A stretch of 64,000 nucleotides of DNA from a bacterium (GCA_037134355.1 JBAXMJ010000001.1:16951-80950), one strand, 5' to 3'; numbered from the stretch's first letter, positions 1 through 14,330 are shown. Numbers and translations are program-made. The notes: a model not told the origin generated them from the letters alone.

Positions 1-669
1 GCGGGCCACAAAAATTCCCAGAACCAATAAGACCACCCCGGCCAGAAACATCACTGGCTCCCCGCTGAGCCGGAACACGGGAACAAAGGGATCGCAGCGG
101 CAGATAATGAAAGCCGAGCCGGTCGCCGCCAGCAGAACCGCCACTCCAAGGTAACCCGCGGGAATCATTCCCAACGCCACTGACACAGGACGTGGCAACC
201 GTGTTGGAAAAAGAATCATCATTTCCTGGATCGCACCGAGCGGACATACCGCGGCGCAAAATACACGCCCGAAAAACAGGGCAAACACCAGCGGAAGAAT
301 AAAAAATGCCGCCACGCTCAGGGAAAGACCGACCTCACTCCCCGACAACCAGGCGGCAACATTCTGGATAGACCCGATGGAACAGACACACCCCTTACGC
401 CAAAACCCGAAATACAGGAGAGAAAATGCCGTAAGCAGAAATACCCCGCGCCGAGATCGCTTCTTCAGGATCAGCCAGGCGGCAAGGGATAAGGCGCCGA
501 TGAGGACCACGACATCCAGCATCTCAACCGTCGCGGCCCGGGGCGGGGGCGTGGTTGTCACCGGCATGGTGTAGCCGCTCTCGAACTGCGGCTGCGGGAA
601 GCGGTTTTCAGCGAAGGCCGCGAGCACCGGCATCAGTAAATAAAGAATGAGCGCTACGGTTCTCATCAT
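1..669 (-). CDS. NapH/MauN-like membrane-bound polyferredoxin; partial, C-terminus lies beyond the window start
   Basis: My own minus-strand translation from ATG at 669/666: MRTVALILYLLMPVLAAFA signal, several TM helices, a 'FGRVFCAAVCPLGAIQE' CxxCP motif and 'CRCDPF'. The start overlaps the upstream gene's stop in an ATGA arrangement. Not in the ORF track because it runs off the window edge. Confidence 0.5.
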   Translation of the reverse strand, partial: MMRTVALILYLLMPVLAAFAENRFPQPQFESGYTMPVTTTPPPRAATVEMLDVVVLIGALSLAAWLILKKRSRRGVFLLTAFSLLYFGFWRKGCVCSIGSIQNVAAWLSGSEVGLSLSVAAFFILPLVFALFFGRVFCAAVCPLGAIQEMMILFPTRLPRPVSVALGMIPAGYLGVAVLLAATGSAFIICRCDPFVPVFRLSGEPVMFLAGVVLLVLGIFVAR

Positions 670-1307
670 GACGCCGCGCTTTCCGAGCGGGGATTCAAAA
701 GATAGGGAGCCGTCGCCGGCACCTGCCGAAAGGCGTCTGACGGGCAATTTCGGGCAATGGAACACTCATTACAATTCACACACCGGTCATGCCGGACCTG
801 CAACACAAGCGAACTGTTGCCGAAGGCCGAGCAGCCCTTGACACACCGGCCACACCCGACACATAGAGATTCATCAATGGTGTATTCGTAATAAGGCTCC
901 TCAACGAATTTCCGCCGGATCGCACCGGTTGGGCAAATCTGATTTTCGGCGGCACTGGTGAGGGTTGTAGAACCTGGCTGAAAAAACCCGAAGCACAACC
1001 GGCAATAGCCGCACTGCTTGGGCCGATGGACACACTTCACAGCGGACGCCTGTAGCACGCACTGAGTGGCGCACCGTCCGCACTGGGTACATTTGGAGGG
1101 ATCCAACTGCCAGACCTTGTGGCCCGCCGAAAGAACGGCCGACGGACACGAGGCCAAATCCGGGCAACCCTTGCAGAGTTTCCACTGGTCGGGACTGCCG
1201 GATGAGTGGCACCGGCGCCCCAGCAGGGCCCGGGCACCCATGCCAGCCAATCCGGCCAGCAAAACCCCGCGCAGAAGAGTCCTTAGAAATTCACGCCGAC
1301 TTTGCAT
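666..1307 (-). CDS. Tat-exported multi-[4Fe-4S] ferredoxin, NapG/MauM-like
   Basis: Twin-arginine signal 'MQSRREFLRTLL'; four Cys clusters (CTQCGRCATQC, CGYCRLC..CP, CVGCGRCVKGC, CVNCNEC..CP). The ORF-track N-terminal extension (1308-1379) is a translated REP element, so the start was moved to MQSRR. Confidence 0.6.
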   Translation of the reverse strand: MQSRREFLRTLLRGVLLAGLAGMGARALLGRRCHSSGSPDQWKLCKGCPDLASCPSAVLSAGHKVWQLDPSKCTQCGRCATQCVLQASAVKCVHRPKQCGYCRLCFGFFQPGSTTLTSAAENQICPTGAIRRKFVEEPYYEYTIDESLCVGCGRCVKGCSAFGNSSLVLQVRHDRCVNCNECSIARNCPSDAFRQVPATAPYLLNPRSESAAS

Positions 1308-1343
1308 GGCTCCTGTTGTTTTAACTTCATTCATCATTTTTTC

Positions 1344-1410
1344 GTAGCATGGGCGTCTCGCCCATGATTTCCTTTTCATTACCCAATCACGGGCGAGACG
1401 CCCGTGCTAC
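1344..1410. repeat. REP pair: forward copy 1344-1366 GTAGCATGGGCGTCTCGCCCATG and inverted copy 1388-1410, forming a hairpin
   Basis: Same 23-nt palindromic unit as at 2346-2469 and 3086-3108. A conserved ATTTCC follows the forward copy. Confidence 0.8.
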
Positions 1411-1411
1411 A

Positions 1412-2335
1412 TCAATACACCCTGACACCATCACCCGACGGATCGAGCACAAGAATCCGCCCCTTAGAATCCACCGCCAGATCCAACCCGACAACAGCCT
1501 TCTCCCACTCCCGTGGTCCCGACATGACCCCGGCAAACCGCCCAGACGCATCATACCGTTTCACCCGGACAATATGCTTCTCGCTTGTTACAAAGGAACC
1601 ATCGGGTGCCAGAGCCATATTGCTCGGATTGCAGCACCCGCAAAAGCCGTCGTCATCGACCGAGGCCTTGCCCCATGAAGACAAAAACTGGCCGTCGGCC
1701 GTGAAATGTTCAAGGCGATGCATACCGGGGTTGACGACCCATAGCGAGCCATCAGGGGCCGTCGCAATATCAAAGAACGCGCTGGGCACCACAAAGCCCT
1801 CCGGGCGACGGGCGGGATCCTTGTCGCCGATCCGTCCGGACACCTCGCCCGCCAAGGTGAACCGCCACACGATCCGATTCTGGCAATCTGCGATGAACAC
1901 AAAGTTTGACGAGACGGCCACGGAGGTGATCATCGTTTTCGCACTCGGGCTTTTCCAGATCGCCTTACGGGTGCCGTCCGGGCCAAAGACTTCAATATGA
2001 TTGTCCAGCCCGGAAAAGATGTCGCCATTAGCCGACACCGCAAGGGCTCGCACGGGGCCCGAAACAGTAAAGGACAACAGGGACTGGCCAAGAACATCAA
2101 GGACTTCAATGCCGGCCTTTGACCCCACGACGATCCTGTCGGATGGCCCGACGGCCAGAGCCGTCACATTGGAGAGGACTGGCTTGATCCAGCGGGATCC
2201 GGATGAAAGGAGGCCATTCGCGGAGATTTTCTTGACCCCGCAGACATCATAGCGGCAATCAGCAGGAGAGACGCACTCGTTGCATCTCGCCCCCATCGGC
2301 CAACAAGCTGTCAAGGCCAGAATGAGCGCCAAACA
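1412..2335 (-). CDS. NHL-repeat / six-bladed beta-propeller lipoprotein; 5' end disrupted by or fused to the REP array
   Basis: h-region plus lipobox 'LALILALTAC' but no in-frame ATG/GTG n-region; the best start is TTG at 2335. Repeated beta-strand-rich modules follow. The ORF track shows it in-frame with the upstream RAYT (ORF 1412..3256). Confidence 0.5.
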   Translation of the reverse strand, partial: CLALILALTACWPMGARCNECVSPADCRYDVCGVKKISANGLLSSGSRWIKPVLSNVTALAVGPSDRIVVGSKAGIEVLDVLGQSLLSFTVSGPVRALAVSANGDIFSGLDNHIEVFGPDGTRKAIWKSPSAKTMITSVAVSSNFVFIADCQNRIVWRFTLAGEVSGRIGDKDPARRPEGFVVPSAFFDIATAPDGSLWVVNPGMHRLEHFTADGQFLSSWGKASVDDDGFCGCCNPSNMALAPDGSFVTSEKHIVRVKRYDASGRFAGVMSGPREWEKAVVGLDLAVDSKGRILVLDPSGDGVRVY

Positions 2336-2345
2336 TAATTTTCCC

Positions 2346-2469
2346 GTAGCATGGGCGTCCCGCCCATGTCCCTCCTCCTCCGTAGCATGGGCGTCCCGCC
2401 CATGTCCCTCCTCCTCCGTAGCATGGGCGTCCCGCCCATGATTTCCCACGGGCGGGACGCCCGTGCTAC
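2346..2469. repeat. Tandem REP array: three forward copies (2346, 2382, 2418) with a 13-nt TCCCTCCTCCTCC spacer, plus one inverted copy (2447-2469)
   Basis: A 36-nt period repeated exactly. The core 'CATGGGCGTCCCGCCCATG' is self-complementary. Forward and inverted copies differ by G/T changes compatible with G-U pairs in RNA. Confidence 0.85.
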
Positions 2470-2470
2470 A

Positions 2471-3055
2471 AAATGAACCAACCCATCGCCAAGAATGTAA
2501 TCCGGCTACAGCAGGATTTTCCACCACATAGCGAACCTGCCTATTAAAGTCATTTTCATCACGAATCAAGTGGTCATAATACTCGGGCTGCCAAAAATCG
2601 CCGCTTCGACCCAACAGGCAATTGGCTTTTTTTGATGTAAAGGATTTCCACGAATGAAGAATGTTTGACATCATATTTCCAGAAAAAGGCCGAACAACAA
2701 CATGCACGTGATTTGGCATGATACACCATGAATAAAGGGCGTATCTCTGCCCATCAAAACACTTCAGCGCAGCTTCAACGACTGTCGCAATGCGATCCTC
2801 GCGCAACCAACATTTTCCATGACCCGCATCCAACCATTTGTCAACCCGTTCTGAGTGTAATTCCTGAAGGCGTAAATGTTCCTCGTCAGTAAGTTCTCGC
2901 CCCAACATTTTGGCGGTTTTGACAATGTCTTCACGCTCATCCCTCCATGATTTCAACACTGACGTCGGCAACGAATCGTGTAATCGGAAGGTCACAGCAT
3001 AGACGGCTCCTTCTTGCGTCCAGTGAGGCAAATAAGCACCCTGAGAAAGTTTCAC
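2471..3055 (-). mobile_element. REP-associated tyrosine transposase (RAYT, IS200/IS605-like HuH-Y1); no in-frame stop before the REP array
   Basis: HuH motif 'MPNHVHVVV', catalytic-Tyr region 'FWQPEYYDHLIRDENDF', C-terminal 'NPAVAGL..WRW' (cf. E. coli YafM). The start is uncertain: GTG at 3055 or GTG at 3088 at the REP edge. Confidence 0.75.
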
Positions 3056-3085
3056 ATCTGCAAAAGGATTATACCCATGCTTTTC

Positions 3086-3165
3086 CACGGGCGGGACGCC
3101 CGTGCTACAGATTGCATTTTCTTTATTCATCCTAAATAACTGACGTCTCGCCCGTGCTACAGATT
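3086..3165. repeat. REP copy (inverted orientation, 3086-3108) plus a degenerate partial copy at 3147-3165; a local direct repeat GCCCGTGCTACAGATT occurs twice
   Basis: Identical to the 2447-2469 copy. Lies between the RAYT start and the stop of the upstream PQQ-like gene. Confidence 0.75.
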
Positions 3166-4625
3166 CACCGCACATCCAAACACCGCATCGTTCCGAAATC
3201 CCTGACCAGAAGGCGGCCATCCGCCAAAGCAAGGGGCGCCCAGGCTTCCTTACCATCCAGCACTCTGGCTTGAGCCAACTTCTGATACCCTTCCGGAGTA
3301 GCCCGAATCATGGTCAGCATTCCCTCGTCATCCAGGATCAGCAATTTTCCGTCAGCCACCATAAAGGGACCCAGCCCGAACCGATCCAAAGCCCCGCTGG
3401 TCCAAACGACCCGTCCATCGGGGTCCATGCACACGGCCTGCTTTCGCATGGCCCCGGCATCCGCTGGCAGCACAGTGTAGAGGTAGCCCTGATAAAAGAC
3501 CGGGGTATGCTGCTCACAGGCGAAGAGTTTCTTATCCACCTTCTTCAGGAGCTTTACAGAAAATCGCTCCCCCTCCTTGAGGATCTGAAACAGGGCGCTC
3601 CCTGCGCCGTAACCGGAGGTGATCCAGAAACGGCCATCACCCACCGGAACGGGCGTCGGGGCAACAACCTGAATATTCCACAGGTCGGTCTCCCAGAGCA
3701 CGGTTCCGGTATCCTGTGCTTCCGCAGAGACTCCGACAATCCCGCCAATTGCACAATATAGATACATTTTCTTCCCGGCGAATTCCATCGGCATGACGGA
3801 GGAATGCGACATCTTCCACTTCCGGGGATTGGGTGTTTCCCATAGCACTTTACCGGTTTCGCAATCCACCCCCGCCGGCCGCACCTTGCCCCCCACCCCG
3901 AGCACCACCTGGGTTCCGTCGATCAGGGGACATTGGCCGGTGTACCACATCGGCACTTCCACGCCCCAATTCCGCTCCAGATCCAGCCCCCACTTGAGAT
4001 CACCCGTCACAGCATCGGCGCACATCACATGACAGCGGGGCCCAATGGTGACCACATAACGATCCGTCACCGCGGGAACGGTGCGTGAAATTCCATGGTT
4101 CCGTTTGATTCTGACCTTGTACGAACGCCGCCAGATTTCACGCCCATCCTCCATCGAAAAACACCGAAGCGCATCCGCGCCTGCAGCACCTTCATAATCC
4201 AATACATAAACGCATCCGTTCCGGATTGCCGGACCGGCATAGCCTTCGCCGAGCGGGATAGACCACAGGCGGGGCGGGCCCCCAACAGGCCAGGAGTTGG
4301 CCAGTTTTTCAGAAGCTGGCGCCAGGTTGTCATGAGCGGCTCCGCGAAAGGAAGGCCATGATCCCGGCGCTTGTGAGGGCACCCCGGCATATCGGGAAAA
4401 GGTTTCGCCAATCCGGACGGGAGTCTCCGCCGCCGCTGCAGCCTGATCGGCACCTGAAGATTCGCCAGCCAGAGGAATCCGCCTGGCCGTGGATACACCC
4501 GAGAGCGTCCCTCGCCACCAGAGCAACGCGACCGCCGAAAGTAGCACCCCGATCAGTACAATCAGTACGGCAGGAAGAATGCCCCTCCCTCGCTGTCCAC
4601 CCTGAAAGATACCCGGGAATGCCAT
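3165..4625 (-). CDS. PQQ-like beta-propeller repeat protein with an N-terminal membrane anchor and Ala/Pro-rich linker
   Basis: TM helix 'ILPAVLIVLIGVLLSAVALLWW'; repeated W/G-containing blade motifs; paralog of the next gene. Start moved to MAFPG. Confidence 0.6.
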   Translation of the reverse strand: MAFPGIFQGGQRGRGILPAVLIVLIGVLLSAVALLWWRGTLSGVSTARRIPLAGESSGADQAAAAAETPVRIGETFSRYAGVPSQAPGSWPSFRGAAHDNLAPASEKLANSWPVGGPPRLWSIPLGEGYAGPAIRNGCVYVLDYEGAAGADALRCFSMEDGREIWRRSYKVRIKRNHGISRTVPAVTDRYVVTIGPRCHVMCADAVTGDLKWGLDLERNWGVEVPMWYTGQCPLIDGTQVVLGVGGKVRPAGVDCETGKVLWETPNPRKWKMSHSSVMPMEFAGKKMYLYCAIGGIVGVSAEAQDTGTVLWETDLWNIQVVAPTPVPVGDGRFWITSGYGAGSALFQILKEGERFSVKLLKKVDKKLFACEQHTPVFYQGYLYTVLPADAGAMRKQAVCMDPDGRVVWTSGALDRFGLGPFMVADGKLLILDDEGMLTMIRATPEGYQKLAQARVLDGKEAWAPLALADGRLLVRDFGTMRCLDVR

Positions 4626-4639
4626 AAGTTCAAGCGATC

Positions 4640-5848
4640 CTACTTGCCCAGATTCAGCGCAATAAGAGTCCCTTTGCTGTTGCGACAGTACAGAACACCC
4701 CGGCACAAGACCGGCGCCGTCCAGCAGGTTTTCTCCAACACTTTACGGGCAGAGGACACCTCTTCATATTTTTCAGGCGACGCCTTGATAATGAACAAAT
4801 CTCCATTTTCATTCAGGGCAATCAGGTGATTCCCCGCTGCTGAGAGCGACCCGAACCCGATGTTCTGACTCCATTTCTCAACGCCAGTTTTGAAATCCAT
4901 GCATTTCAGGGAACCGCCTCCCACATTACCATCGAACCCGTACAAAAACCCGTTGATCAGCACACAACTACTGAACTGGTTCTTCATGGTCTTGTTCTTC
5001 CAGACCTCTATGGGTGCCGGGCCCCGGACATCAATAACGGCGCCCGCGTTGTTATACCCAGAGGAAATGAACATGAGCCCGTCCGATACAATCGGGTCGG
5101 CCGCATTGACATCATACGAGGTCTTCCAGGGAATAGACCAGAGCTTGACACCCGTTTCCAGATCGACGCCATACAGTTCCTTTGCGCTGAACAAGGCCAG
5201 GCACTCCTTCCCTCCCGCAGAGAACTCAACTGGTGCGGCATACCCCCCTGTCCCTCCCGGACTGGACCATACTTTGGCGCCGGTATTCCGGTTCAAGACC
5301 ACCCCGTATTCACCTGCATTCACCAACAACATGTCGCCCTTGATCACCGGCGATCCGGAGAATCCCCACCCCAGGTTAACGGCACCGAATTCCTTCATCA
5401 GATTCTTGTTCCACTTGACCTCGCCGGTTACCGCATCCAGGCACAACAACAGTCCTACACGGCTCAGGGAATAGACCAGTTTGCCGTCCGTGGCGGGAGT
5501 AGCGCGCGGTCCGGGATAACTCCCCGCCTCGCACGGATAGGAATGTTTCCATAACGCCTTTCCATCCTTCAGGGAAAGGGCGTAAATCGTGTCTGTATTA
5601 TCCTTATTTCCAAAGGCAAACAGCCTGTCGCCCTTGATGGAAACGGCGGAATAACCCTCTCCGACTTCTGCTTTCCACAGGATTTTCGCTCCACCTTGAA
5701 GCGCAAGCGGATTCCATTGGGTTTCCCTGGAGATCCCGTCACGATTCGCCCCGCGGAACTGAGGCCAGTCATAGACCTCTGAACCTTGCACATGACCCGC
5801 AACAATCCATCCCGCCAACCCGATTGCCGTCATAGTCTTGAAACGCAT
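4640..5848 (-). CDS. Secreted PQQ-like beta-propeller repeat protein
   Basis: Signal peptide 'MRFKTMTAIGLAGWIVAGHVQG'; repeated blade motifs (WxxxxG...). Tandem paralog of 3165-4625. Confidence 0.6.
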   Translation of the reverse strand: MRFKTMTAIGLAGWIVAGHVQGSEVYDWPQFRGANRDGISRETQWNPLALQGGAKILWKAEVGEGYSAVSIKGDRLFAFGNKDNTDTIYALSLKDGKALWKHSYPCEAGSYPGPRATPATDGKLVYSLSRVGLLLCLDAVTGEVKWNKNLMKEFGAVNLGWGFSGSPVIKGDMLLVNAGEYGVVLNRNTGAKVWSSPGGTGGYAAPVEFSAGGKECLALFSAKELYGVDLETGVKLWSIPWKTSYDVNAADPIVSDGLMFISSGYNNAGAVIDVRGPAPIEVWKNKTMKNQFSSCVLINGFLYGFDGNVGGGSLKCMDFKTGVEKWSQNIGFGSLSAAGNHLIALNENGDLFIIKASPEKYEEVSSARKVLEKTCWTAPVLCRGVLYCRNSKGTLIALNLGK

Positions 5849-5897
5849 AATCGCCCTCCTGTTTGATCCGCCTCTGTTTCTACTAAAAGGTCTCACA

Positions 5898-6368
5898 CTA
5901 GAGGATTTCGATTATGATTACGATTAAGATTATGAGGCAATTCGACGACGTACTGGGCGAACAGGAACTCCACCCGGTGCCGGTCGCTGGGAAACGCTTC
6001 GGCCCGGTAACACCGACCACGGCTCGATCTAACTCCGCATGGGCCTTCACCAGTTTCGGCGGCATCGCCACGGGATCGTGCAAGTCGGCCAGCGTTGAAC
6101 CCGGGAATTCCTTCCGGACATCCAGAACTTTCTGCGCCGTCGCTTCCACCGCCGTTTTCTGCTTCTTCGTCACCGCCTGCGGCCAGGGGAGTTGTTGTAG
6201 ACGATGTCCTTGGAGTAATGTTCCGTTCATAACCTGTCTCGAACCATCACCATCGTTAGCAAATGTTATTTGTTCCGATGTGAACCCGTACGGCCTCCAT
6301 TTGTCCGAACGTCGAAAGTCAGGGTCCGAGCGGAACGCGAGGTAACCTGGACTTTCTGGTTCGATCAC
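5898..6368 (-). pseudogene. Fragment of an N6-adenine DNA methyltransferase (RM-system C-terminal region), truncated
   Basis: 'TLADLHDPVAMPPKLVKAHAELDRAV' matches the conserved C-terminal tail of type I/IIG DNA MTases. The upstream and downstream parts are non-homologous and low-complexity. Confidence 0.45.
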
Positions 6369-6619
6369 TTTTCGTAGATTTCCCGTCTGTGGCCGATTCG
6401 CAGGACAAGGACTTGTGTTTCCAAGATGGCATAAATGACACGGTAATCACCGACTCGGAATTTCCGCAAGCCGGCAAAATGCCCCTTTAGAACAGGATAA
6501 GAATCCGCGCGCGTGGCGAGATCCTTGTCGATCTTGTCGAGTATCCGCCTGGCTTCGGCTTTACCGAGGCTTGCGAGGTCTTTCGACACGCTCTTCTTGT
6601 AGGTGATTTCAAAGGCCAA
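6365..6619 (-). CDS. Type II toxin-antitoxin system RelE/ParE family toxin
   Basis: 84 aa with typical RelE/ParE features ('...YRVIYAI....LVLRIGHRREIY'); overlaps the upstream antitoxin by 11 nt. Confidence 0.75.
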   Translation of the reverse strand: MAFEITYKKSVSKDLASLGKAEARRILDKIDKDLATRADSYPVLKGHFAGLRKFRVGDYRVIYAILETQVLVLRIGHRREIYEK

Positions 6620-6827
6620 GGGATTTCCTCAATTCACGTCCGGACACAACCGCATCCTTTTGATCGCGCAGTCGGTCAAGGGCAATTTGGACATCGGCAA
6701 AATCCGCAATATAGGATTCCAATGCTCTTTGAATATGGAAGGAGCGGGGCCTTTCCGTTTCATCCGCAATATGGGTCAGTTCATTGGCCAGACCATCAGG
6801 TAATCGAATTGATACAGCAATACTCAT
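6609..6827 (-). CDS. Ribbon-helix-helix (CopG/ParD-like) antitoxin
   Basis: 72 aa with an N-terminal RHH ('SIRLPDGLANELTHIADETERPRSFHIQRALESYI'); immediately upstream of the toxin. Confidence 0.65.
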   Translation of the reverse strand: MSIAVSIRLPDGLANELTHIADETERPRSFHIQRALESYIADFADVQIALDRLRDQKDAVVSGRELRKSLGL

Positions 6828-6839
6828 GACATCTCCTCA

Positions 6840-6858
6840 TGTATTCTTCTGTAATACA
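6840..6858. promoter_or_regulatory. Inverted repeat TGTATTcttctgtAATACA directly upstream of the antitoxin start; putative auto-repression operator
   Basis: Perfect 6-bp arms 13 nt upstream of the RHH gene start, in an AT-rich promoter region. Confidence 0.35.
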
Positions 6859-7148
6859 GTGTATGCAATGCCATCATTATTGTCAATTCCATCTTTGTCT
6901 TGAAATCAAACGAATCTGTAAGCGATTACAATTCCTGTTTTAGAAGAAAGTATTTATAAAAACCTGCTGAAAACAGATGCTTTCAGTTTACATTTGCCGG
7001 TAATTAGCAGCTTGCCCAGGCGGAACGGGCTTTGAGGCTGTATTTTGTTAATTTCTCAAAGGACACCAGCCCGATGAAAACAGTGAACGGGAATATCGCC
7101 TATTTTCCCGCTTGCTTCCCCGGCAAAATTCATCTATTTGGCACACCC

Positions 7149-9275
7149 ATGAATACATGCAAAACACCCCCACCGAAGTTCATGATTCTGACCCTTGGAA
7201 CCATGGCGTTATCTCTGATACTCATCCCGAACGCCAAATCGGCCACCAACACGATTGAAACGGTCGTGGTCTCTGCGCGGCGCTGGACGGAACCACTTCA
7301 GTCGGTGCCAGGCGCGGTGACCGTTCAAAATGCCGACACGCTTCAATCAGCTGGCATTCGGGATCTTCGCGATGCTGCCCCCAAAGTGCCAAATCTGACG
7401 CTGGGGGATTTCTCCGTGCGACGCCTCACCTTCCCCTATATGCGGGGCATCGGATCGGGCCGCAACAGCCCCGCTGTCACCACGATCATTGATGGCGTCC
7501 CCCAGCTCTCCTACGCCACCGCCAATCAGGAACTGCTCGATGTCGAGCGGATTGAATTCCTGCGCGGTGCTCAGGGTTCCCTGTATGGCCGCAACACACT
7601 CGGCGGCGCCATCAACATTGTCCCCCATCTGCCCACCCGGGATCCCGCCGCTTCCTTCAGCCTCGCTACCGGAAGTGAAAATTTCTTTGACGCCCGTGCC
7701 TCCAGCGAGGGGCCTCTCGGCACCGATAAAGCCGCCGGTAGTGCAAGCGCTGGCTATTCCCGCCGCGATGGATATACCCACAATGACATCACAGGCAACC
7801 GGCTGGACGGTCGCGAATCGTTCTTCGGCCGCGCTCAGATGCTCTGGCCCGACGAAGGACCGTGGACCTATCGTCTCAGTGCCGGCGGTGAAGTGGATCG
7901 CGATGGCGACTACGGGTTGGGCGATCTGGCGACCATCCGTTCCAAACCCCATCATGTTGCCCATGATTATGAAGGCAGCTCGGAACGCGATCTGGCGCAA
8001 CCGGTCTTTACCGCAACACGTAAAGGTGACAAGGCCGATTTTGTTTCAACCACGGCCTTTCAATGGTGGCGTTCCCATGACAGGACCGACCTGGATGCCA
8101 CCCCTGCCGACCTGATTCGCCGTGACAATGAGGAGAATCAACAGGCGACTATCGAGGAACTCCGCTTCATGTCGCCTGAGAACGCCCCGGTCACGCTCGG
8201 AGATCATCTGAGTCTCCGCTGGCTGCTCGGCGCCCTAGCGTTCCACTCGTCCTATTCCCAACGCGCCTTCAACGATTACCGGCCCGGCTCTGTCGCGATG
8301 CTCGGCCTTCCGTTCCCTTTTCAGCAGCATGATGATGCCGATCTTGCCGACACCGGACTGAGCCTCTTTGGGCACACCACGCTCACTCTGGATGAACGAT
8401 GGGAACTCGGCCTCGGTATCCGGGATGATTATGAACACCGGTCAGCCGACCGCCGGAGTTACGCCTCCATTCCCCTGATGCCGGCCTCGGGCGCGGACGA
8501 CAGCGCCGATTTCAACCAGATCAGCCCGCGCACCTCGCTCGGTTATCACCTTACGAAAAACGCCTTTGTCTACGGGGAAGCCTCAAAAGGATATAAGGCT
8601 GGCGGATTCAATACCCTGGCGATTCCCGGCCACGCCACCTATGGCGATGAAAACAGCTGGACCTATGAGACCGGACTTAAAACAGACTGGTTGAGCCGCC
8701 GCGTAACAGCCAACCTCGCCTTGTTCCACACCGACTGGAACGACCTGCAGATGGATGTCCCGACAGGTTCTCCCGGCGTCTTCTATCTCGACAACACCAG
8801 CAAGGCCGAAAGTCAGGGCGGTGAACTCGAACTGACAATCCGTCCAGTGAGCGGACTCAGCCTGTTCGGCGGACTGGGCGTCCTCTCCACCGAATTCGGA
8901 CAAGGCAGCACCACCGCCGGAATGGATGTCAGTGGCAACGACCTGCCCTTTGCCCCGCGCACAACCTGGAACGCCGGCACGGAGTACAGTCAGACGTTGC
9001 GCGGGCGCGCCATCGGCTTTATCCGGATTGAGGGTGTTGGAACCGGCCGCTATCAGTACGACGCCCTCAATGGGGCTTCCCAATCCAGTTATGCCCTGGT
9101 TAACACCCGCGTAGGTATGGCCAATGGAAGCTGGCGTGTCGAGGCCTGGGTGAAAAACCTGTTCGATAAGGATTATGTTCCCCTCGCCTTCTCCTACCCG
9201 CTTGCACCCTCGGGCTACATCGGGGAGAGCGGCACACCCCGAACCCTTGGCGTCTCCCTTGCCCGTTCGTTCTAA
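7149..9275 (+). CDS. TonB-dependent outer-membrane receptor
   Basis: Signal peptide, TonB-box-like 'ETVVVSA', plug and 22-strand barrel region, C-terminal '...SLARSF' terminal Phe. Start chosen at MNTCK; the ORF track begins at 7032. Confidence 0.8.
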   Translation: MNTCKTPPPKFMILTLGTMALSLILIPNAKSATNTIETVVVSARRWTEPLQSVPGAVTVQNADTLQSAGIRDLRDAAPKVPNLTLGDFSVRRLTFPYMRGIGSGRNSPAVTTIIDGVPQLSYATANQELLDVERIEFLRGAQGSLYGRNTLGGAINIVPHLPTRDPAASFSLATGSENFFDARASSEGPLGTDKAAGSASAGYSRRDGYTHNDITGNRLDGRESFFGRAQMLWPDEGPWTYRLSAGGEVDRDGDYGLGDLATIRSKPHHVAHDYEGSSERDLAQPVFTATRKGDKADFVSTTAFQWWRSHDRTDLDATPADLIRRDNEENQQATIEELRFMSPENAPVTLGDHLSLRWLLGALAFHSSYSQRAFNDYRPGSVAMLGLPFPFQQHDDADLADTGLSLFGHTTLTLDERWELGLGIRDDYEHRSADRRSYASIPLMPASGADDSADFNQISPRTSLGYHLTKNAFVYGEASKGYKAGGFNTLAIPGHATYGDENSWTYETGLKTDWLSRRVTANLALFHTDWNDLQMDVPTGSPGVFYLDNTSKAESQGGELELTIRPVSGLSLFGGLGVLSTEFGQGSTTAGMDVSGNDLPFAPRTTWNAGTEYSQTLRGRAIGFIRIEGVGTGRYQYDALNGASQSSYALVNTRVGMANGSWRVEAWVKNLFDKDYVPLAFSYPLAPSGYIGESGTPRTLGVSLARSF

Positions 9276-9439: not shown

Positions 9440-10060
9440 ATGAATCCAACACAAAGTTCCACCTTGGTCTGGTTCGATACCGAATACACCAGCCTTGACC
9501 TCGAGCAGGCGCACCTGATTCAGGTGGCCATGGTCATCACCGACATGCAGGGTCGGCGGATCGCGCCACAGGATCAGGACCTTATGACGGCTGTTCGACT
9601 TCCCGAAGGATGTTCTGTCAGTGATTTCGTTGCCAAGGAATGTCCGGACCTGGTCCGGCGGGCCCGATCTGAAAGCACGCCCACTTCGGATGAGGTCGAT
9701 GGCATGCTGACTGCACGATTGAATTCACTGCTCGGGCCGGCGCCTGAAAAAATCAAGGATCGCCCCATCCTCGCAGGAAATACTATTCACGCCGACTGGT
9801 GGTTTGCCCGGCGTTTTCTGCCCCGCTTTATCGACAGGCTCCACTATCGAAATCTGGATGTCAGCACCCTGAAAATCCTTTGGCTCGACTCCAAATTGGG
9901 GCCCGAATTTGACAAGGGAAACACCGCTCTGATCCAGGACAATCTGGATGGCTGGACACTCCCGAGTGGCACCAAACAGCATGACGCCCTCTATGATGTA
10001 ATGTGCTCGGTTGCAGAAATGAATTACTACCGTCGCCATTTTTTAAAAGACCTGAAATAA
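9440..10060 (+). CDS. orn: Oligoribonuclease-like DEDDh 3'-5' exonuclease
   Basis: 'LVWFDTEYTSLD' Exo I motif, 'H..DALYD' Exo III motif; about 200 aa. Confidence 0.6.
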   Translation: MNPTQSSTLVWFDTEYTSLDLEQAHLIQVAMVITDMQGRRIAPQDQDLMTAVRLPEGCSVSDFVAKECPDLVRRARSESTPTSDEVDGMLTARLNSLLGPAPEKIKDRPILAGNTIHADWWFARRFLPRFIDRLHYRNLDVSTLKILWLDSKLGPEFDKGNTALIQDNLDGWTLPSGTKQHDALYDVMCSVAEMNYYRRHFLKDLK

Positions 10061-10119
10061 TCTGGACATGATCCTGGAAGAGCCACGCCTTAACAGGCGC
10101 GGCTACGTAGCCGCCGCGG

Positions 10120-10926
10120 TTACGCGGTGGCCGGATCATGTAAATCGCGGAACAGGGCAGTGGCGTTCTCTGACAGGATTTTTTGAAGAAGCGGCGCGGG
10201 AAGACCCAATTCCCTCAACACCCGCAGGGGTTCCGCGGGATTACCCCACGGGGAATCACTGCCGAAAAACAATCGGTCTTCCGGATGCGCCAGGATCATC
10301 CGGCGCACCTGTTCCTGAGGCAGGAACTCCAGCGTCAGGGAAATCTCCAGATTCACCGGCTTCCCGATCAATTTAGCCTCCACGTCGTTCCAATCATTCC
10401 ACGCCCCGAAATGGGTGGCCATGAATTTCAGTTTGGGAAAACGGGTCACCAGGTCCAGGCTCCGCGACGCATCCGCCTTGCGATCCAGGGGAAAGGCCAT
10501 GTCAAATCCGGTATGAGATACCAGCACAAGCCCGGACGATTCCACTGCGGCGTAAAAGGGATCAAATGCGTGATCTGCCAGGTCAAACCCCTGATAATAG
10601 GGATGAATCTTGATTCCCTTCAATCCCGCAGCCTTGACCTCCCCCACGCGCGCCACCGCCAGGGGGTCGGCCGGATGAATCGACGCCAGAGGAATCAGCC
10701 GGTCGCTTTTTATTGCCCGCGACCACTTGAGGATGGGATCAAACTGTTCTGGCTTGGTGGCAATGGAACAGATGACGGAACGATCCACTCCCGCCGAATC
10801 CATGGAGCGGAGAAGTCCGGCCACCGTTCCATCCGAAAAGGCCCGGGCATTCCCCACCTCGAGATGAGCCATTGCCCGTGCCGCCAGGGAGTCAGGAAAG
10901 GCATGGGTATGAACGTCGATAATCAT
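10120..10926 (-). CDS. Amidohydrolase-family (TIM-barrel metal-dependent hydrolase) protein
   Basis: 'MIIDVHTHAFP' metal-binding HxH start; amidohydrolase-2-like. Confidence 0.6.
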   Translation of the reverse strand: MIIDVHTHAFPDSLAARAMAHLEVGNARAFSDGTVAGLLRSMDSAGVDRSVICSIATKPEQFDPILKWSRAIKSDRLIPLASIHPADPLAVARVGEVKAAGLKGIKIHPYYQGFDLADHAFDPFYAAVESSGLVLVSHTGFDMAFPLDRKADASRSLDLVTRFPKLKFMATHFGAWNDWNDVEAKLIGKPVNLEISLTLEFLPQEQVRRMILAHPEDRLFFGSDSPWGNPAEPLRVLRELGLPAPLLQKILSENATALFRDLHDPATA

Positions 10927-12086
10927 CAGGTTTTTTTCACGAAGGGGGAAATGGCTCTCAATTTGGCTATAATGGGAGGAAGACTCTTCAGGGTATACTC
11001 GATCTCTTCGGCTGTCGTGAACCGGCTCAGACTGAACCGTACCGAACCATGAACCGCAGTGAAGGGCACACCCATGGCGCGAAGCACATGCGAAGGCTCC
11101 AACGAACCCGAAGTGCAGGCCGACCCCGAGGAGGCCGCAATCCCGACATCACTCATCATATAGAGGATGGATTCACCCTCGATATATTCAAAACTGATGT
11201 TCAGAGTATTAGGAAGCCGGTTGACCCGGTCTCCATTGACCCGCGAATCCGGGCAGGTGGCCAGGAATCCGGCCTCAAGCCGGTCACGCAGGGCCGCTAT
11301 TACCGTCATCTCCCGACCGATTGACGCGCCGGCCAATTCCGCCGCCCGCCCCAATCCCACAATATAGGGCACATTCTCGGTACCCGCCCGACGACTGTCC
11401 TCCTGATGCCCCCCCAACATGAAGGGCTGAAGACGCGTCCCCTTGCGCACATACAATACGCCAATTCCCTTGGGCGCATGAATCTTGTGGCCGGAAAGGG
11501 AAAGCATATCGACCGGGATCTTGCGAACATCAATAGGCATCTTGCCCACCGCCTGCACGGCGTCAGTATGCATGACCCCGCCCGCGGCCTTCACCATGGC
11601 GGCGATTTCCGGTATCGGAAAAATCACACCCGTCTCATTGTTCGCCCACATCACGCTGACCACCGCAGGACCGTCCCGGAGCGCCTCACCCAATTGAACC
11701 ACATCCAACTGCCCCGCCGAATCCACGCCGATCTCGTGCAACCGGTGCCCCCGTTCTCCGAGATAGCGACACGGGCCCAGAACGGCAGGATGTTCCACCC
11801 GCGTGGTGATGATGTTATACCGTGGACCCAGAGCCTCGGCAGCACCCCGGATGGCCATGTTATCGCTCTCGGTTCCGCAACTGGTGAAAATAATTTCCGA
11901 GGGATCGGCATGAATCAGCTCAGCAACCTGACTCCGGGCCCGGTCAATGTGCTTTTTCACCTCCCCGCCAAACGCATGCATGCTGGAGGGATTCCCCCAC
12001 TGGTCATGCAAGAAAGGCATCATCGCCTCGATCACCTCGGGTGCCACGGCGCTGGTGGCGTTGTTATCCAGGTAGATGGTCTTCAT
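10926..12086 (-). CDS. nifS: Cysteine desulfurase NifS/IscS
   Basis: PLP-lysine region and 'SSGSACTSGSLEPSHVL' active-site loop. Confidence 0.85.
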   Translation of the reverse strand: MKTIYLDNNATSAVAPEVIEAMMPFLHDQWGNPSSMHAFGGEVKKHIDRARSQVAELIHADPSEIIFTSCGTESDNMAIRGAAEALGPRYNIITTRVEHPAVLGPCRYLGERGHRLHEIGVDSAGQLDVVQLGEALRDGPAVVSVMWANNETGVIFPIPEIAAMVKAAGGVMHTDAVQAVGKMPIDVRKIPVDMLSLSGHKIHAPKGIGVLYVRKGTRLQPFMLGGHQEDSRRAGTENVPYIVGLGRAAELAGASIGREMTVIAALRDRLEAGFLATCPDSRVNGDRVNRLPNTLNISFEYIEGESILYMMSDVGIAASSGSACTSGSLEPSHVLRAMGVPFTAVHGSVRFSLSRFTTAEEIEYTLKSLPPIIAKLRAISPFVKKT

Positions 12087-12937
12087 TCCCGAACCTCCTC
12101 CACCGTCAGTTCACTGGAAACAAACTCACGAAGCTTGACCTCCACCACATCCTTCAGGGTGAAATGGGCGACCTGACATCCAGCGCACATCCCACGCAGT
12201 GCGACCTTGACCCGGTTCCCATCGACATCAATCAGTTCGATATCCCCTCCGTCCCGCTTCAATAACGGACGGATTTCACGCTCGATCGTCTGTTCAATCA
12301 GCCGGATCTTTTCAATCACCGTCAGTTTCTTAGGTGCGGTTTTTGCTCCAGCCTTATGTTCGGCCTCCAGCCGTTCCACACGAGCTTTCTCCAGGATAGT
12401 CTCGATATCCGGTTTGCACTTCCCGCACCCGCCGCCCGCCTTCGTATAATTGGTCACCTGTTCCAGTGTCGAAAGGCCATTCTCACGAACCACCCGTTCG
12501 ATTTCCTCCGCGGTAACGCCAAAGCAATTGCACACCACCTTGCCGGCCAGAATTTTCTTCTCGGTCGATCCGCTCCTGTAATTCTCGATGGCCGCCTCAA
12601 GGGCCTCGCGCCCCATCACGGAACAGTGCATCTTCTGTTCGGGAAGCCCGCCCAGAAACTCAGCAATATCCTGATTGGTCACTTTTCCAGCTTCCTCTAC
12701 GGTCATGCCCTTGATCATCTCCGTCAACGCCGAGGATGAGGCAATAGCGCTGGCGCAGCCAAAGGTCTGAAACTTTACATCGGCAATCCGCCCGTCAGCG
12801 CCAAGCTTGAACATCAACCGCAGGGCATCCCCGCAGGCAAGTGAGCCCACTTCGCCGACTCCATCGGGTTTCTCAATCACGCCTACATTCCGGGGATTCC
12901 GGAAATGATCCATCACTTTTCCCGTATAGTCCCACAT
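12083..12937 (-). CDS. nifU: Fe-S cluster assembly scaffold NifU (three-domain)
   Basis: N-terminal IscU-like domain (three Cys), central BFD-like [2Fe-2S] domain (CNCFGVT), C-terminal Nfu CxxC domain. Confidence 0.85.
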   Translation of the reverse strand: MWDYTGKVMDHFRNPRNVGVIEKPDGVGEVGSLACGDALRLMFKLGADGRIADVKFQTFGCASAIASSSALTEMIKGMTVEEAGKVTNQDIAEFLGGLPEQKMHCSVMGREALEAAIENYRSGSTEKKILAGKVVCNCFGVTAEEIERVVRENGLSTLEQVTNYTKAGGGCGKCKPDIETILEKARVERLEAEHKAGAKTAPKKLTVIEKIRLIEQTIEREIRPLLKRDGGDIELIDVDGNRVKVALRGMCAGCQVAHFTLKDVVEVKLREFVSSELTVEEVRE

Positions 12938-13016
12938 AAATCATCATCCTTTCTTCTAGTAGAAACAATAGGTGTTATGAAGAGATCGGTCAAGGTTAAA
13001 TGCTACGCTATTGGTA

Positions 13017-14330
13017 TCATTTTGACGGAATCCCGTTCATTTCCTTGACAATTTTGCTGTGCTCCTTGCTGGCGGGATCAGGAAATTCCAGAATCGCCTT
13101 GTTATAGTAACTGCGTGCCTCCTCATATGACTGGCGCGCCTCAACGGGGTCCCCTGCCGAAGCCAGTAAGTCACCAATTCGTTTGGCATTCAGCCCCAGT
13201 ATCATTTCGCGGCTCACCCTGCACCCAGTCAGTGGATCCTGCTCGTCCCGATCCTGCTTTTTAATGAGACTCATGAAGTCACGGAAATATTTTACGGCCT
13301 CCCTGGGCTGCTTGTTCTTTAGGGCAAGATGGGCGTGGACTTTAGCAAGCATCTGCTGCCTCTGCTCCTCCCCGATTCCACCAGCCCCCTCCTGAATCAA
13401 TTTCAATGACGCCTCGAAGTCCTCCAGAAAATAACTGATATCCAGCATCATGCCCCGCAGCATCATCTTATCACTATCCAAGGTTAACCCTGTCTCCACA
13501 GTCCGGCACAGTGAAAACAAAGCCTGATAGGTGTCGCGATCATTGCAACCCAGCAGCACGGGATAGTATCCATTGATCAGCAGGATAATAACGCCCGGCT
13601 GGACTTTTCGGCGGTTGATCTCCTGCAACCGGTTTACCATCTCACGGGCAGATCCGTTCCGGGCCGCCATTCTCATCCATCCATCGGCGGCAGCCTCGCG
13701 GGTCAGCGTATATCCGGACGGGGACTCCAGTGCTGCGGAATACAGGGTATCGCCAGCCGAGTGATCCCCCTCCTTGAAGGCAGCCTCGCCAACGATCCTC
13801 ACGTTACGGGAAACGCCCTCATCCGGCACCTCAGATATAAGCGTTAGCAATTCGACCAAAGCGCCCTTGTACCCATCACGGGCCATCAGAAGGTCAATTC
13901 TCCCATTCGCCAGGAGGATGCGAGTGGCATGCGAATCCTTGAACTTCGCTTTTACGATGCCCAATACCTGCTCAACAGCCGTCCACTGCTTCCTCTGAAT
14001 CAGCATCGTTTCGATTGCGTTCACAATAGGAGCAACCACATCAGGAGTCTCACCGGCCGCAGCTCCGAACCGGGCCAAGGCGGCATCCATCCGGTTCGCC
14101 CCCATCTCAAGCTGAAGCATCTCCCATAATAGTATGGCTCGATTATTCATATAATGTCGACTGGTGTAATAGGAAGACAGCTTGGATAAGGCGGCATCCA
14201 CCTGCCCAGCCATAGCCATTCTCCGAGCCTCGCCCACAACACCAGCAAGATCCTGCCCGGCTTTGGGTCCGCACGATACCGTCAGAAGCATAGCGCTTAT
14301 CAAACATACACCTATTAACATCCGGGTCAT
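13017..14330 (-). CDS. Hypothetical lipoprotein with TPR-like helical repeats
   Basis: Signal plus lipobox 'LLTVSC'; alpha-helical repeat composition. Confidence 0.45.
   Translation of the reverse strand: MTRMLIGVCLISAMLLTVSCGPKAGQDLAGVVGEARRMAMAGQVDAALSKLSSYYTSRHYMNNRAILLWEMLQLEMGANRMDAALARFGAAAGETPDVVAPIVNAIETMLIQRKQWTAVEQVLGIVKAKFKDSHATRILLANGRIDLLMARDGYKGALVELLTLISEVPDEGVSRNVRIVGEAAFKEGDHSAGDTLYSAALESPSGYTLTREAAADGWMRMAARNGSAREMVNRLQEINRRKVQPGVIILLINGYYPVLLGCNDRDTYQALFSLCRTVETGLTLDSDKMMLRGMMLDISYFLEDFEASLKLIQEGAGGIGEEQRQQMLAKVHAHLALKNKQPREAVKYFRDFMSLIKKQDRDEQDPLTGCRVSREMILGLNAKRIGDLLASAGDPVEARQSYEEARSYYNKAILEFPDPASKEHSKIVKEMNGIPSK

Follow-up and report, generated by a model that had tools for sequence, protein, structure and literature searches.

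The first 5,848 nucleotides of a 64,000-nucleotide stretch of bacterial DNA (GCA_037134355.1 JBAXMJ010000001.1:16951-80950; hereafter the window, numbered from its first letter) hold five co-directional minus-strand genes together with inserted mobile DNA. We are very confident that these genes belong to a widely conserved operon, of which positions 1-5848 form the 5′ half and which continues beyond coordinate 1. The genes encode a membrane polyferredoxin (polyFd), a ferredoxin (Fd) exported by the twin-arginine translocation (Tat) pathway, and three β-propeller proteins, namely NHL and two propellers of the pyrroloquinoline quinone (PQQ)-like type, PQQa and PQQb. Our preferred reading, to which we give a probability of about 0.5, is that an NAD(P)H flavoprotein in the cytoplasm would pass electrons through polyFd to Fd and on to the periplasmic propellers. 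The system consists of known kinds of parts in an undescribed combination. A search of the open-access literature found no published account of a propeller–ferredoxin system of this sort, an absence that is not proof. The five genes are the following.

1..669, minus strand: polyFd, first 223 codons, with the gene running off the window (translation; Pfam Fer4_5 at 3.3e-10; 310 bits to the orthologue in the related locus L002; family conservation).
666..1334, minus strand: Fd, a Tat-exported multi-cluster ferredoxin of 222 aa (invariant RR motif and 20 Cys in the family alignment, A1; 2556 homologues).
1412..2344, minus strand: NHL, a six-bladed propeller with an N-terminal membrane anchor and an invariant F-x-G-C-C-N-P motif (conservation; AlphaFold2 (AF2) model with a predicted local distance difference test (pLDDT) score of 88.7; NHL fold matches).
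3165..4622, minus strand: PQQb, an eight-bladed BamB-like propeller of 485 aa with one N-terminal transmembrane helix (Pfam PQQ_2 at 1.2e-17; AF2 pLDDT 89.5; fold searches; natural fusions to NHL).
4640..5848, minus strand: PQQa, 402 aa, a BamB-like propeller secreted by way of a signal peptide (Pfam PQQ_2 at 1.6e-29); in this lineage the operon begins with it.

A preliminary description of this DNA, made from the sequence alone, had read the polyFd and Fd genes as a NapGH-type quinol dehydrogenase module standing beside secreted propellers, with no molybdoenzyme in view. The elements that it described were all found in place, with small corrections, and the analysis of related genomes bears out its view that propellers and ferredoxins form one unit. 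Its identification of the electron partner did not find support.

A pattern scan based on the ferredoxin alignment, with one genome per species of the Genome Taxonomy Database (GTDB), matched at least 583 stretches, and the neighbour counts given here refer to the best 80 of these. Open reading frames (ORFs) were called at each locus and assigned by phmmer to reference proteins from three annotated loci, and the counts depend on these calls and assignments. Neighbours were scored by gene midpoints, only at loci with enough flanking DNA, and the resulting counts are lower bounds, as insertions interrupt some clusters. One core order, PQQb – NHL – Fd – polyFd – PQQc – NuoEF-like – GltD-like, recurs in nearly all loci. 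Fd is neighboured by polyFd at 74 of the 75 loci scored, by NHL at 70/77, by PQQb at 56/65 and by PQQc, a further propeller, at 61/64; the two flavoprotein genes, NuoEF-like and GltD-like, stand near it at 53/58 and 46/52 loci, respectively. The loci share descent, so the counts are not independent events, though they span at least nine phyla, across which the order is kept: Bacteroidota, Kiritimatiellia, Lentisphaerota, Verrucomicrobiota, Planctomycetota, Calditrichota, KSB1, Firestonebacteria and Armatimonadota. Four loci (L029, L035, L050 and L057) are labelled Bifidobacteriaceae/Bifidobacterium or Akkermansia, which probably reflects mis-binning or mislabelling of metagenome-assembled genomes, the cluster being otherwise one of the Bacteroidota and the PVC group (Planctomycetota–Verrucomicrobiota–Chlamydiota).

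Tight packing and gene fusion point the same way. In L085 and L086, ten genes from PQQa to PQQd follow one another with gaps of at most 36 nt and several 4-nt overlaps. Natural PQQb–NHL fusions of 764-814 aa keep both the KRNHG motif of PQQb and the GCCNP motif of NHL. Seven PQQb homologues have fusion length (P0243, P0249, P0261, P0271, P0273, P0276 and P0279); three were read (P0249, P0261 and P0271), all of which have lost the NHL anchor helix, and the other four were assigned by length only. Synteny, packing and fusions together strongly support the propeller genes and the NapGH-like pair as one conserved unit.

No conventional reductase accompanies that unit. Across 84 related loci, the set used for the checks of neighbouring families and reductases, no molybdoenzyme, cytochrome or other reductase travels with the Fd/polyFd pair, and no nap, nos or mau genes lie near it at any locus; the rest of the window region likewise holds no molybdoenzyme, as had been described. 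Orthologous pairs sitting beside nap, nos or mau genes, with the propeller genes unlinked, were looked for and not found. Clustering of the 568 unassigned ORFs of at least 150 aa in these 84 loci revealed no further family common to more than five of them.

The Fd ORF spans 666-1379, and the real start is probably the ATG at 1334, which gives 222 aa, as in orthologues. The twin-arginine motif reads SRREFLR, with R13 and R14 invariant in A1. The 20 invariant cysteines comprise four CxxCxxC...C(P) groups plus C54, C57, C63 and C101, enough for five clusters, so that the Tat-exported ferredoxin with four [4Fe-4S] motifs first described is upheld and may hold one cluster more. The best 120 homologues are 55-92% identical to it. 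The exact window protein, taken from either start, matched no database record, and a sequence search of the PDB found no close solved relative. Its identification as NapG fails: hhalign of A1 against Escherichia coli NapG aligns a single generic 51-column ferredoxin segment, and the 25 best NCBIfam matches include no NapG/MauM model, only generic ferredoxins.

The Fd stop codon overlaps the polyFd start as ATGA at 666-669, the stop/start overlap reported before. Within the window, polyFd shows a signal-like N-terminus, a conserved RFPxPxF, a GCxC, a first CX3CP motif and an ICRxDPF; the motif given earlier as CxxCP is in fact FCAAVCP, that is, CX3CP. Two CX3CP and two CxxCxxCxxxCP motifs occur without exception in 67 orthologues and can be aligned with those of E. 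coli NapH; only the first CX3CP falls within the window. Identity to E. coli NapH is 26% over 172 aa, spanning both CX3CP segments and the first cluster. Against the NapH model TIGR02163, which has a cutoff of 213.05, the full-length orthologue in L001 scores 52.6 bits (4e-14) and the window fragment 18.1 bits. Judged by these alignments, polyFd is a true but distant relative of NapH; the earlier name captures the core motifs and a detectable homology, but not membership, the score lying far under the cutoff. Several features go beyond E. coli NapH: the signal-like N-terminus with RFPxPxF, the invariant GCxC, the invariant ICRxDPF cysteine and about three additional helices, two of them between the cluster motifs. 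Hydrophobicity and the positive-inside rule suggest that the CX3CP and cluster motifs face the cytoplasm, and the GCxC and ICR cysteines the periplasm.

The electron partner is indicated by what follows beyond coordinate 1. In the close relatives L001, L005 and L085 the operon continues with three core genes, PQQc, NuoEF-like and GltD-like. The NuoEF-like protein (~790 aa) contains, in the L001 orthologue, NuoE, an extra 2Fe-2S domain, Complex1_51K (the FMN/NADH domain), NADH_4Fe-4S and two Fer4 domains. In relatives, this set corresponds to BfuB (NuoF-like, with an N-terminal 2Fe-2S and C-terminal 2x[4Fe-4S]) plus BfuC (NuoE-like). Its best solved relatives are NfnB (9n5u_B, 2e-204), 9bov_B and the Stn subunit 8oh5_B. 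The GltD-like protein (~515 aa) has an N-terminal 2Fe-2S domain, Fer4_20 and a GltD-type FAD/NAD(P) domain, and matches best residues 6-288 of NfnA (9bov_A, 2e-88), followed by StnA and 9n5u_A. At 512 aa it is far too short to include the Fdh/NuoG-like domain of the 1178-aa NfnA, and it is thus not a complete BfuA/NfnA. NfnABC couples NADPH oxidation to the reduction of NAD+ and ferredoxin (PMC11829005, PMC12018979). The membrane-linked types named in a survey of Bfu enzymes are Mbh-Bfu and Nuo-Bfu alone, and its main text contains none of the words propeller, PQQ or periplasm (PMC9304861).

These NfnB- and NfnA-like genes point to cytoplasmic NAD(P)H, and not to quinol, as the electron partner. 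The conserved downstream partners of the pair are thus a NuoE+NuoF fusion and a 2Fe-2S/GltD-like flavoprotein, and we set aside the proposed quinol dehydrogenase. We hold the coupling of the Fd/polyFd–propeller system to NAD(P)H with moderate confidence.

Taken together, the parts suggest the following route. A cytoplasmic flavoprotein of NfnABC/Bfu type, formed by the NuoE+NuoF fusion and the 2Fe-2S/GltD-like FAD subunit, would oxidise NAD(P)H, and may do so by flavin-based bifurcation with NAD+ as second acceptor. Electrons would then go to the cytoplasmic [4Fe-4S] domains of polyFd, which would take the place of a soluble ferredoxin, and cross the membrane by way of the two CX3CP segments to three invariant cysteines at the predicted outer face (those of GCxC and ICRxDPF). 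From there they would enter the four or five clusters of the exported Fd. The chain would end at a membrane-anchored complex of PQQb, NHL and the three-helix-anchored PQQc, where a putative substrate, probably anionic and periplasmic or part of the envelope, would be reduced. We speculate that a bifurcating input would supply electrons at the level of ferredoxin, suiting low-potential acceptors.

The propellers at the end of this chain are exported or tethered throughout. All carry signal peptides or membrane anchors, and PQQb, NHL and PQQc, the last a propeller on three transmembrane helices, are held at the inner membrane. PQQb and PQQa are, as described before, one membrane-anchored and one secreted, to judge by the N-terminal transmembrane helix of the former and the signal peptide of the latter. 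They are also paralogues, as claimed, but at only 28% identity (E 3e-31) they are old ones and not the product of a recent tandem duplication.

PQQb is the most conserved propeller of the system. It has 60 invariant positions in 66 sequences, among them the loop K-R-N-H-G-x-S-R-T-x-P-A, and in blades 2-7 the D-to-A and B-to-C loops hold the polar ones. Placed by strand order, they are K173, N175, H176, S179, R180 and T181; Y227, T228, Q230 and C231; N265, M271, S272 and H273; Y338; and E370, Q371 and T373. This is the face on which propeller enzymes bind their ligand or cofactor. The closest folds are the cofactor-less BamB, YxaL and Rv3035, with PQQ dehydrogenases ranking lower, which speaks against the earlier idea of PQQ-like catalytic propellers. 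Against the PQQ dehydrogenase family TIGR03075, PQQa reaches 37 bits (cutoff 480) and PQQb is not listed. Named homologues of PQQb are labelled ‘BamB’ or ‘PQQ-binding-like’.

NHL is modelled with the six blades of an NHL fold, and the structures nearest to it are NHL domains without enzymatic function; the family to which it belongs numbers 2272 cluster representatives at E ≤ 1e-30. Over 70 sequences, C237, C238, N239 and P240 never vary, and at least 90% keep C235. The GCCNP motif sits in a 17-residue loop leading into an inner strand; the next loop carries the invariant E255, K256 and R260. Named homologues are all called ‘hypothetical’, ‘NHL repeat-containing protein’ or ‘sugar lactone lactonase YvrE’. 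As to the label of lipoprotein, the window copy has a lipobox-like LTAC, but this is no feature of the family, any such motif being found in only 8 of 73 orthologues; most orthologues have an uncleaved N-terminal membrane anchor. In L073 and L051, twin-arginine-like N-termini (SRRRFV and LDRRNFI) replace the anchor helix, a hint that NHL may sometimes be exported folded. PDB sequence searches with PQQb and NHL found no close solved relative.

Two familiar kinds of redox centre were considered and rejected. No NHL, PQQb, PQQc or polyFd sequence contains the CxxCH of heme proteins. A NosZ-like or His-rich copper propeller does not fit PQQb, which has only two invariant histidines, or PQQc, which has none among its positions conserved at 85% or above. 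The reaction site would more likely be formed by the vicinal Cys-Cys of GCCNP in NHL together with the conserved basic pocket on the top face of PQQb, and our confidence in any terminal chemistry at the propellers is low. A more ambitious formulation of the NAD(P)H-driven route, which we offer tentatively and consider doubtful, would have this system be the first NfnABC-type bifurcating module to export low-potential electrons across the cytoplasmic membrane. A NapH-like iron–sulfur (Fe–S) conduit would lead them to a new class of cofactor-poor propeller reductase with the NHL vicinal dithiol as active site. Widespread fermentative bacteria of the PVC and FCB (Fibrobacterota–Chlorobiota–Bacteroidota) groups would thereby have a periplasmic sink for electrons that had gone unrecognised, with low-potential sulfur oxyanions or polysulfide as conceivable acceptors.

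Several points weigh against an NAD(P)H-driven periplasmic reductase. Electron transfer, complex formation and expression are all predictions, drawn from sequence, synteny and modelled folds, and the residues of the propeller faces were positioned by the order of secondary structure and not by coordinates. The NfnABC-like genes lie outside the window, and their presence in this genome is deduced from L001 and L005, whose ferredoxins are 83-92% identical to that of the window. Bifurcation may have been lost, given that the NfnA-like subunit is without an Fdh-like domain. Proteins of the NapH family are classically quinol-linked, and a quinol site may exist on polyFd as far as its sequence goes. 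The closest folds of PQQb are non-catalytic scaffolds, so the propellers may only organise the complex, and in NHL no cofactor site can be recognised and no more than two or three cysteines are conserved. Finally, three loci carry Fd without the rest of the cluster (L038, L057 and L062), polyFd being present in the first two and not in L062; the two orphan pairs that were inspected, in L038 and L057, have housekeeping neighbours. These orphan sites lie at 9740-11729 in L038, 6552-8428 in L057 and 4932-5486 in L062.

The alternative closest to the preliminary description would keep Fd and polyFd as a NapGH-type (mena)quinol dehydrogenase that feeds the propellers, with the NfnABC-like genes encoding a separate, soluble transhydrogenase that merely travels along. 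The shared NapH core of polyFd, with its two CX3CP and [4Fe-4S] motifs (26% over 172 aa; TIGR02163 at 4e-14), fits this well, as does the placement of a Tat ferredoxin beside a membrane polyferredoxin with an ATGA overlap, which matches NapGH. An unrelated enzyme is hard to reconcile, however, with NuoEF-like and GltD-like genes that recur across phyla at the frequencies given above and lie 0-3 nt from their neighbours. PolyFd, moreover, falls far under the NapH cutoff and has extra helices and cysteines, and Fd is no NapG homologue. We regard this alternative as unlikely.

Less likely again is a reversal of the flow, in which the propellers would oxidise a low-potential periplasmic donor and Fd and polyFd would carry its electrons inward, where the Bfu-type module would use them in a confurcation that yields NADPH or NADH. 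Enzymes of the NfnABC type are reversible (PMC11829005). A chain of clusters has no intrinsic direction, and the synteny evidence fits import and export equally well. Against import, the cluster encodes no recognisable oxidising centre (hydrogenase, formate dehydrogenase or heme). To judge by record titles and general background, most carriers are anaerobes that ferment and degrade polymers; such organisms usually need sinks for electrons and not extra donors, and this also counts against it.

A similarly improbable role is envelope maturation. A glycolipid or glycoconjugate made by a family 4 glycosyltransferase (GT4) would be reduced at the outer face of the inner membrane by the Fe–S/propeller complex and extracted by an ATP-binding cassette (ABC) system of LolD/MacB type, with the BamB-like propellers serving as scaffolds. 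In several phyla the core does occur together with GT4, a LolD-like ATPase, an FtsX/MacB-type permease and one more secreted propeller; Bacteroidota and Kiritimatiellia carry these genes downstream of it, Planctomycetota upstream. The BamB-like fold of PQQb and the inner-membrane tethering of PQQb, NHL and PQQc would also suit this role. The ABC genes, however, sit so close to the ends of the retrieved sequences that only ~20 loci could be scored for them; no redox enzyme that modifies lipids or sugars can be recognised, and the need for a Bfu-type module would go unexplained. None of the PQQc, flavoprotein, GT4, additional secreted-propeller and ABC genes occurs elsewhere in the 64-kb window.

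That the system is a periplasmic metal-chelate reductase, acting for instance on ferric siderophores on behalf of the adjacent TonB-dependent receptor, is very improbable. Only 4 of the 85 sequences scanned, which were the 84 loci and the window itself, have such a receptor, and all four are Kiritimatiellia/Lentisphaerota-like; it is therefore not part of the conserved system, nor do iron-binding or transport genes recur in the 84 loci. Where it occurs in such relatives (L085, the P0002 contigs, L023 and L028), the receptor directly adjoins PQQa, and it is absent in other phyla. Chance adjacency or an assembly artefact, with no functional unit at all, has only the interrupting mobile DNA in its favour and is hardly credible against a gene order conserved in 80 genomes of at least nine phyla, the existence of fusion proteins and an identical PQQa context in three independent metagenome assemblies. 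The NAD(P)H-driven export of electrons to the propellers thus stays our preferred account.

In the window itself, the operon has been invaded by a repetitive extragenic palindrome (REP) element and its REP-associated tyrosine transposase (RAYT). The inserted elements are as follows.

1344..1410, no strand: inverted REP doublet at the NHL-stop/Fd-start junction (REP pattern search; spacing in the relative L085).
2346..2469, no strand: REP array 3′ of RAYT, of three direct 36-nt units and one inverted copy (REP search).
2471..3130 (approximate), minus strand: RAYT, with an HVH (HUH-type) motif (NCBIfam NF047646, REP_Tyr_transpos; Pfam Y1_Tnp).
3086..3165, no strand: REP copy (3086-3108) and partial copy (3149-3165), 5′ of RAYT and directly after the PQQb stop codon (REP search).

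The 64-kb window contains 7 copies of the 23-nt REP consensus GTAGCATGGGCGTCCCGCCCATG, where 0 are expected, and none falls outside 1344-3108. Every REP copy of the window is therefore inside one operon, beside a single RAYT. Five copies flank RAYT in inverted orientation, and the other two form the inverted doublet at 1344-1410, a second insertion that had not been described before. RAYT matches NF047646 at 76.3 bits (E 2.1e-21; cutoff 80) and Y1_Tnp at 25.5 bits (cutoff 23). The flanking inverted palindromes agree with the reported REP/RAYT insertion, which sits between PQQb and NHL and whose transposase is probably of the RAYT type.

The insertions alter the expression signals of NHL and Fd. 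In L005, whose ferredoxin is 92% identical, the PQQb stop is followed by GGAGG, about five bases and the NHL start, ATG AGC GGG ACG GGT AAA CTG. In the window the last REP has taken the place of the ribosome-binding site, the ATG and the first two codons of NHL, which has no start codon of its own. RAYT in turn lacks its own stop codon, and an ORF at 1412-3256 reads in frame from RAYT into NHL. At the other end, where L085 has a 4-nt overlap of the NHL stop and the Fd start (and a gap of 10 nt between PQQb and NHL), the doublet intervenes, so that the translational coupling kept in relatives is broken here. Because NHL orthologues normally use an uncleaved N-terminal anchor helix, a RAYT–NHL fusion could still place the propeller outside the membrane by means of the anchor helix that it keeps. 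Its function in this genome is uncertain.

Upstream of PQQa lie further mobile remnants and the receptor gene.

5898-6368, minus strand: C-terminal fragment of MmeI, a restriction-enzyme remnant (MmeI_C, 1.5e-20).
6365-6619, minus strand: ParE-type toxin (Pfam labels on the identical arrangement in L088/L089).
6609-6827, minus strand: ribbon–helix–helix (RHH) antitoxin (Pfam labels on the same L088/L089 arrangement).
7032..9275, plus strand: divergent TonB-dependent receptor of siderophore-receptor type (NCBIfam TonB-siderophor, 2.5e-55, under cutoff).

The remnants at 5898-6827 separate the operon from its usual divergent TonB neighbour. The same arrangement is found on three metagenome contigs (L088-L090) that carry an identical PQQa protein and end inside PQQb. 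A conserved link to the TonB receptor was rejected on the count of 4 in 85 given above. Farther on, to judge by an order and lengths identical to those in L088, the region 9440-14330 encodes an RNase_T protein, an amidohydrolase, NifS-like aminotransferase and NifU-like scaffold proteins, and a protein of 437 aa without a Pfam match. A conserved link of this NifU/NifS-like pair, and so of Fe–S assembly, to the operon was rejected, for L085 has no such pair within the 7 kb upstream of its operon. Promoter and terminator scans of positions 1-7100 did not rise above shuffled expectation and are given no weight.

The Fd family marks the gene cluster in at least 583 stretches of species-representative genomes. 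If the proposed route is right, it would explain a possible purpose of the NapH-type cytoplasmic clusters, add a membrane-linked type to the Bfu family and bring to light a new redox reaction in the periplasm of anaerobic polymer degraders that abound in lakes, sediments and digesters. Two carriers are in culture, Perlabentimonas gracilis M08_MB (L067) and Gaoshiqia sediminis A06 (L076), and the system is therefore directly testable.

Among known systems, the nearest in architecture are NapGH, MauMN, NosGH and NosR. As in these, a Tat-exported multi-[4Fe-4S] ferredoxin directly precedes, and is translationally coupled to, a membrane polyferredoxin with two CX3CP and cytoplasmic [4Fe-4S] motifs. 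The defining partners of those families (nap, nos and mau) are however missing at all 84 loci, and the conserved partner is instead an NAD(P)H flavoprotein. Fd shares with NapG only a generic ferredoxin segment, and polyFd stays under the curated NapH threshold. NosGH and MauMN accompany enzymes with β-propeller subunits, NosZ and the heavy chain of methylamine dehydrogenase, which is a precedent for the partnership only.

On the cytoplasmic side, the likeness is to NfnABC and Stn (PMC11829005). The NuoEF-like protein has the domain set of BfuB/BfuC, and the GltD-like protein matches the N-terminal and NfnL-like (FAD, NADPH) part of NfnA/StnA. Here, in contrast, the B and C subunits are fused, A lacks the whole Fdh/NuoG-like domain, and the genes are embedded among a polyferredoxin, a Tat ferredoxin and propellers.

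For the propellers, PQQb differs from BamB, YxaL and Rv3035 in its inner-membrane helix anchor, its 60 invariant residues, concentrated on one face, its fusions with NHL and its constant place beside Fe–S proteins. Tetrathionate hydrolase (TetH), a PQQ-like propeller enzyme without cofactor, shares only 13-15% identity and needs no electron donor; the structural resemblance is a lead only, and would indicate no more than that PQQ-less propellers can be enzymes. NHL shares its six-bladed fold with the NHL-repeat propellers of TRIM/Brat, peptidyl-hydroxyglycine lyase and the PknD sensor (Foldseek E ~1e-17 to 1e-11; template modelling (TM) scores 0.6-0.73). None of these matches is a redox enzyme, whereas the GCCNP pair and the Fe–S gene context are specific to this NHL family.

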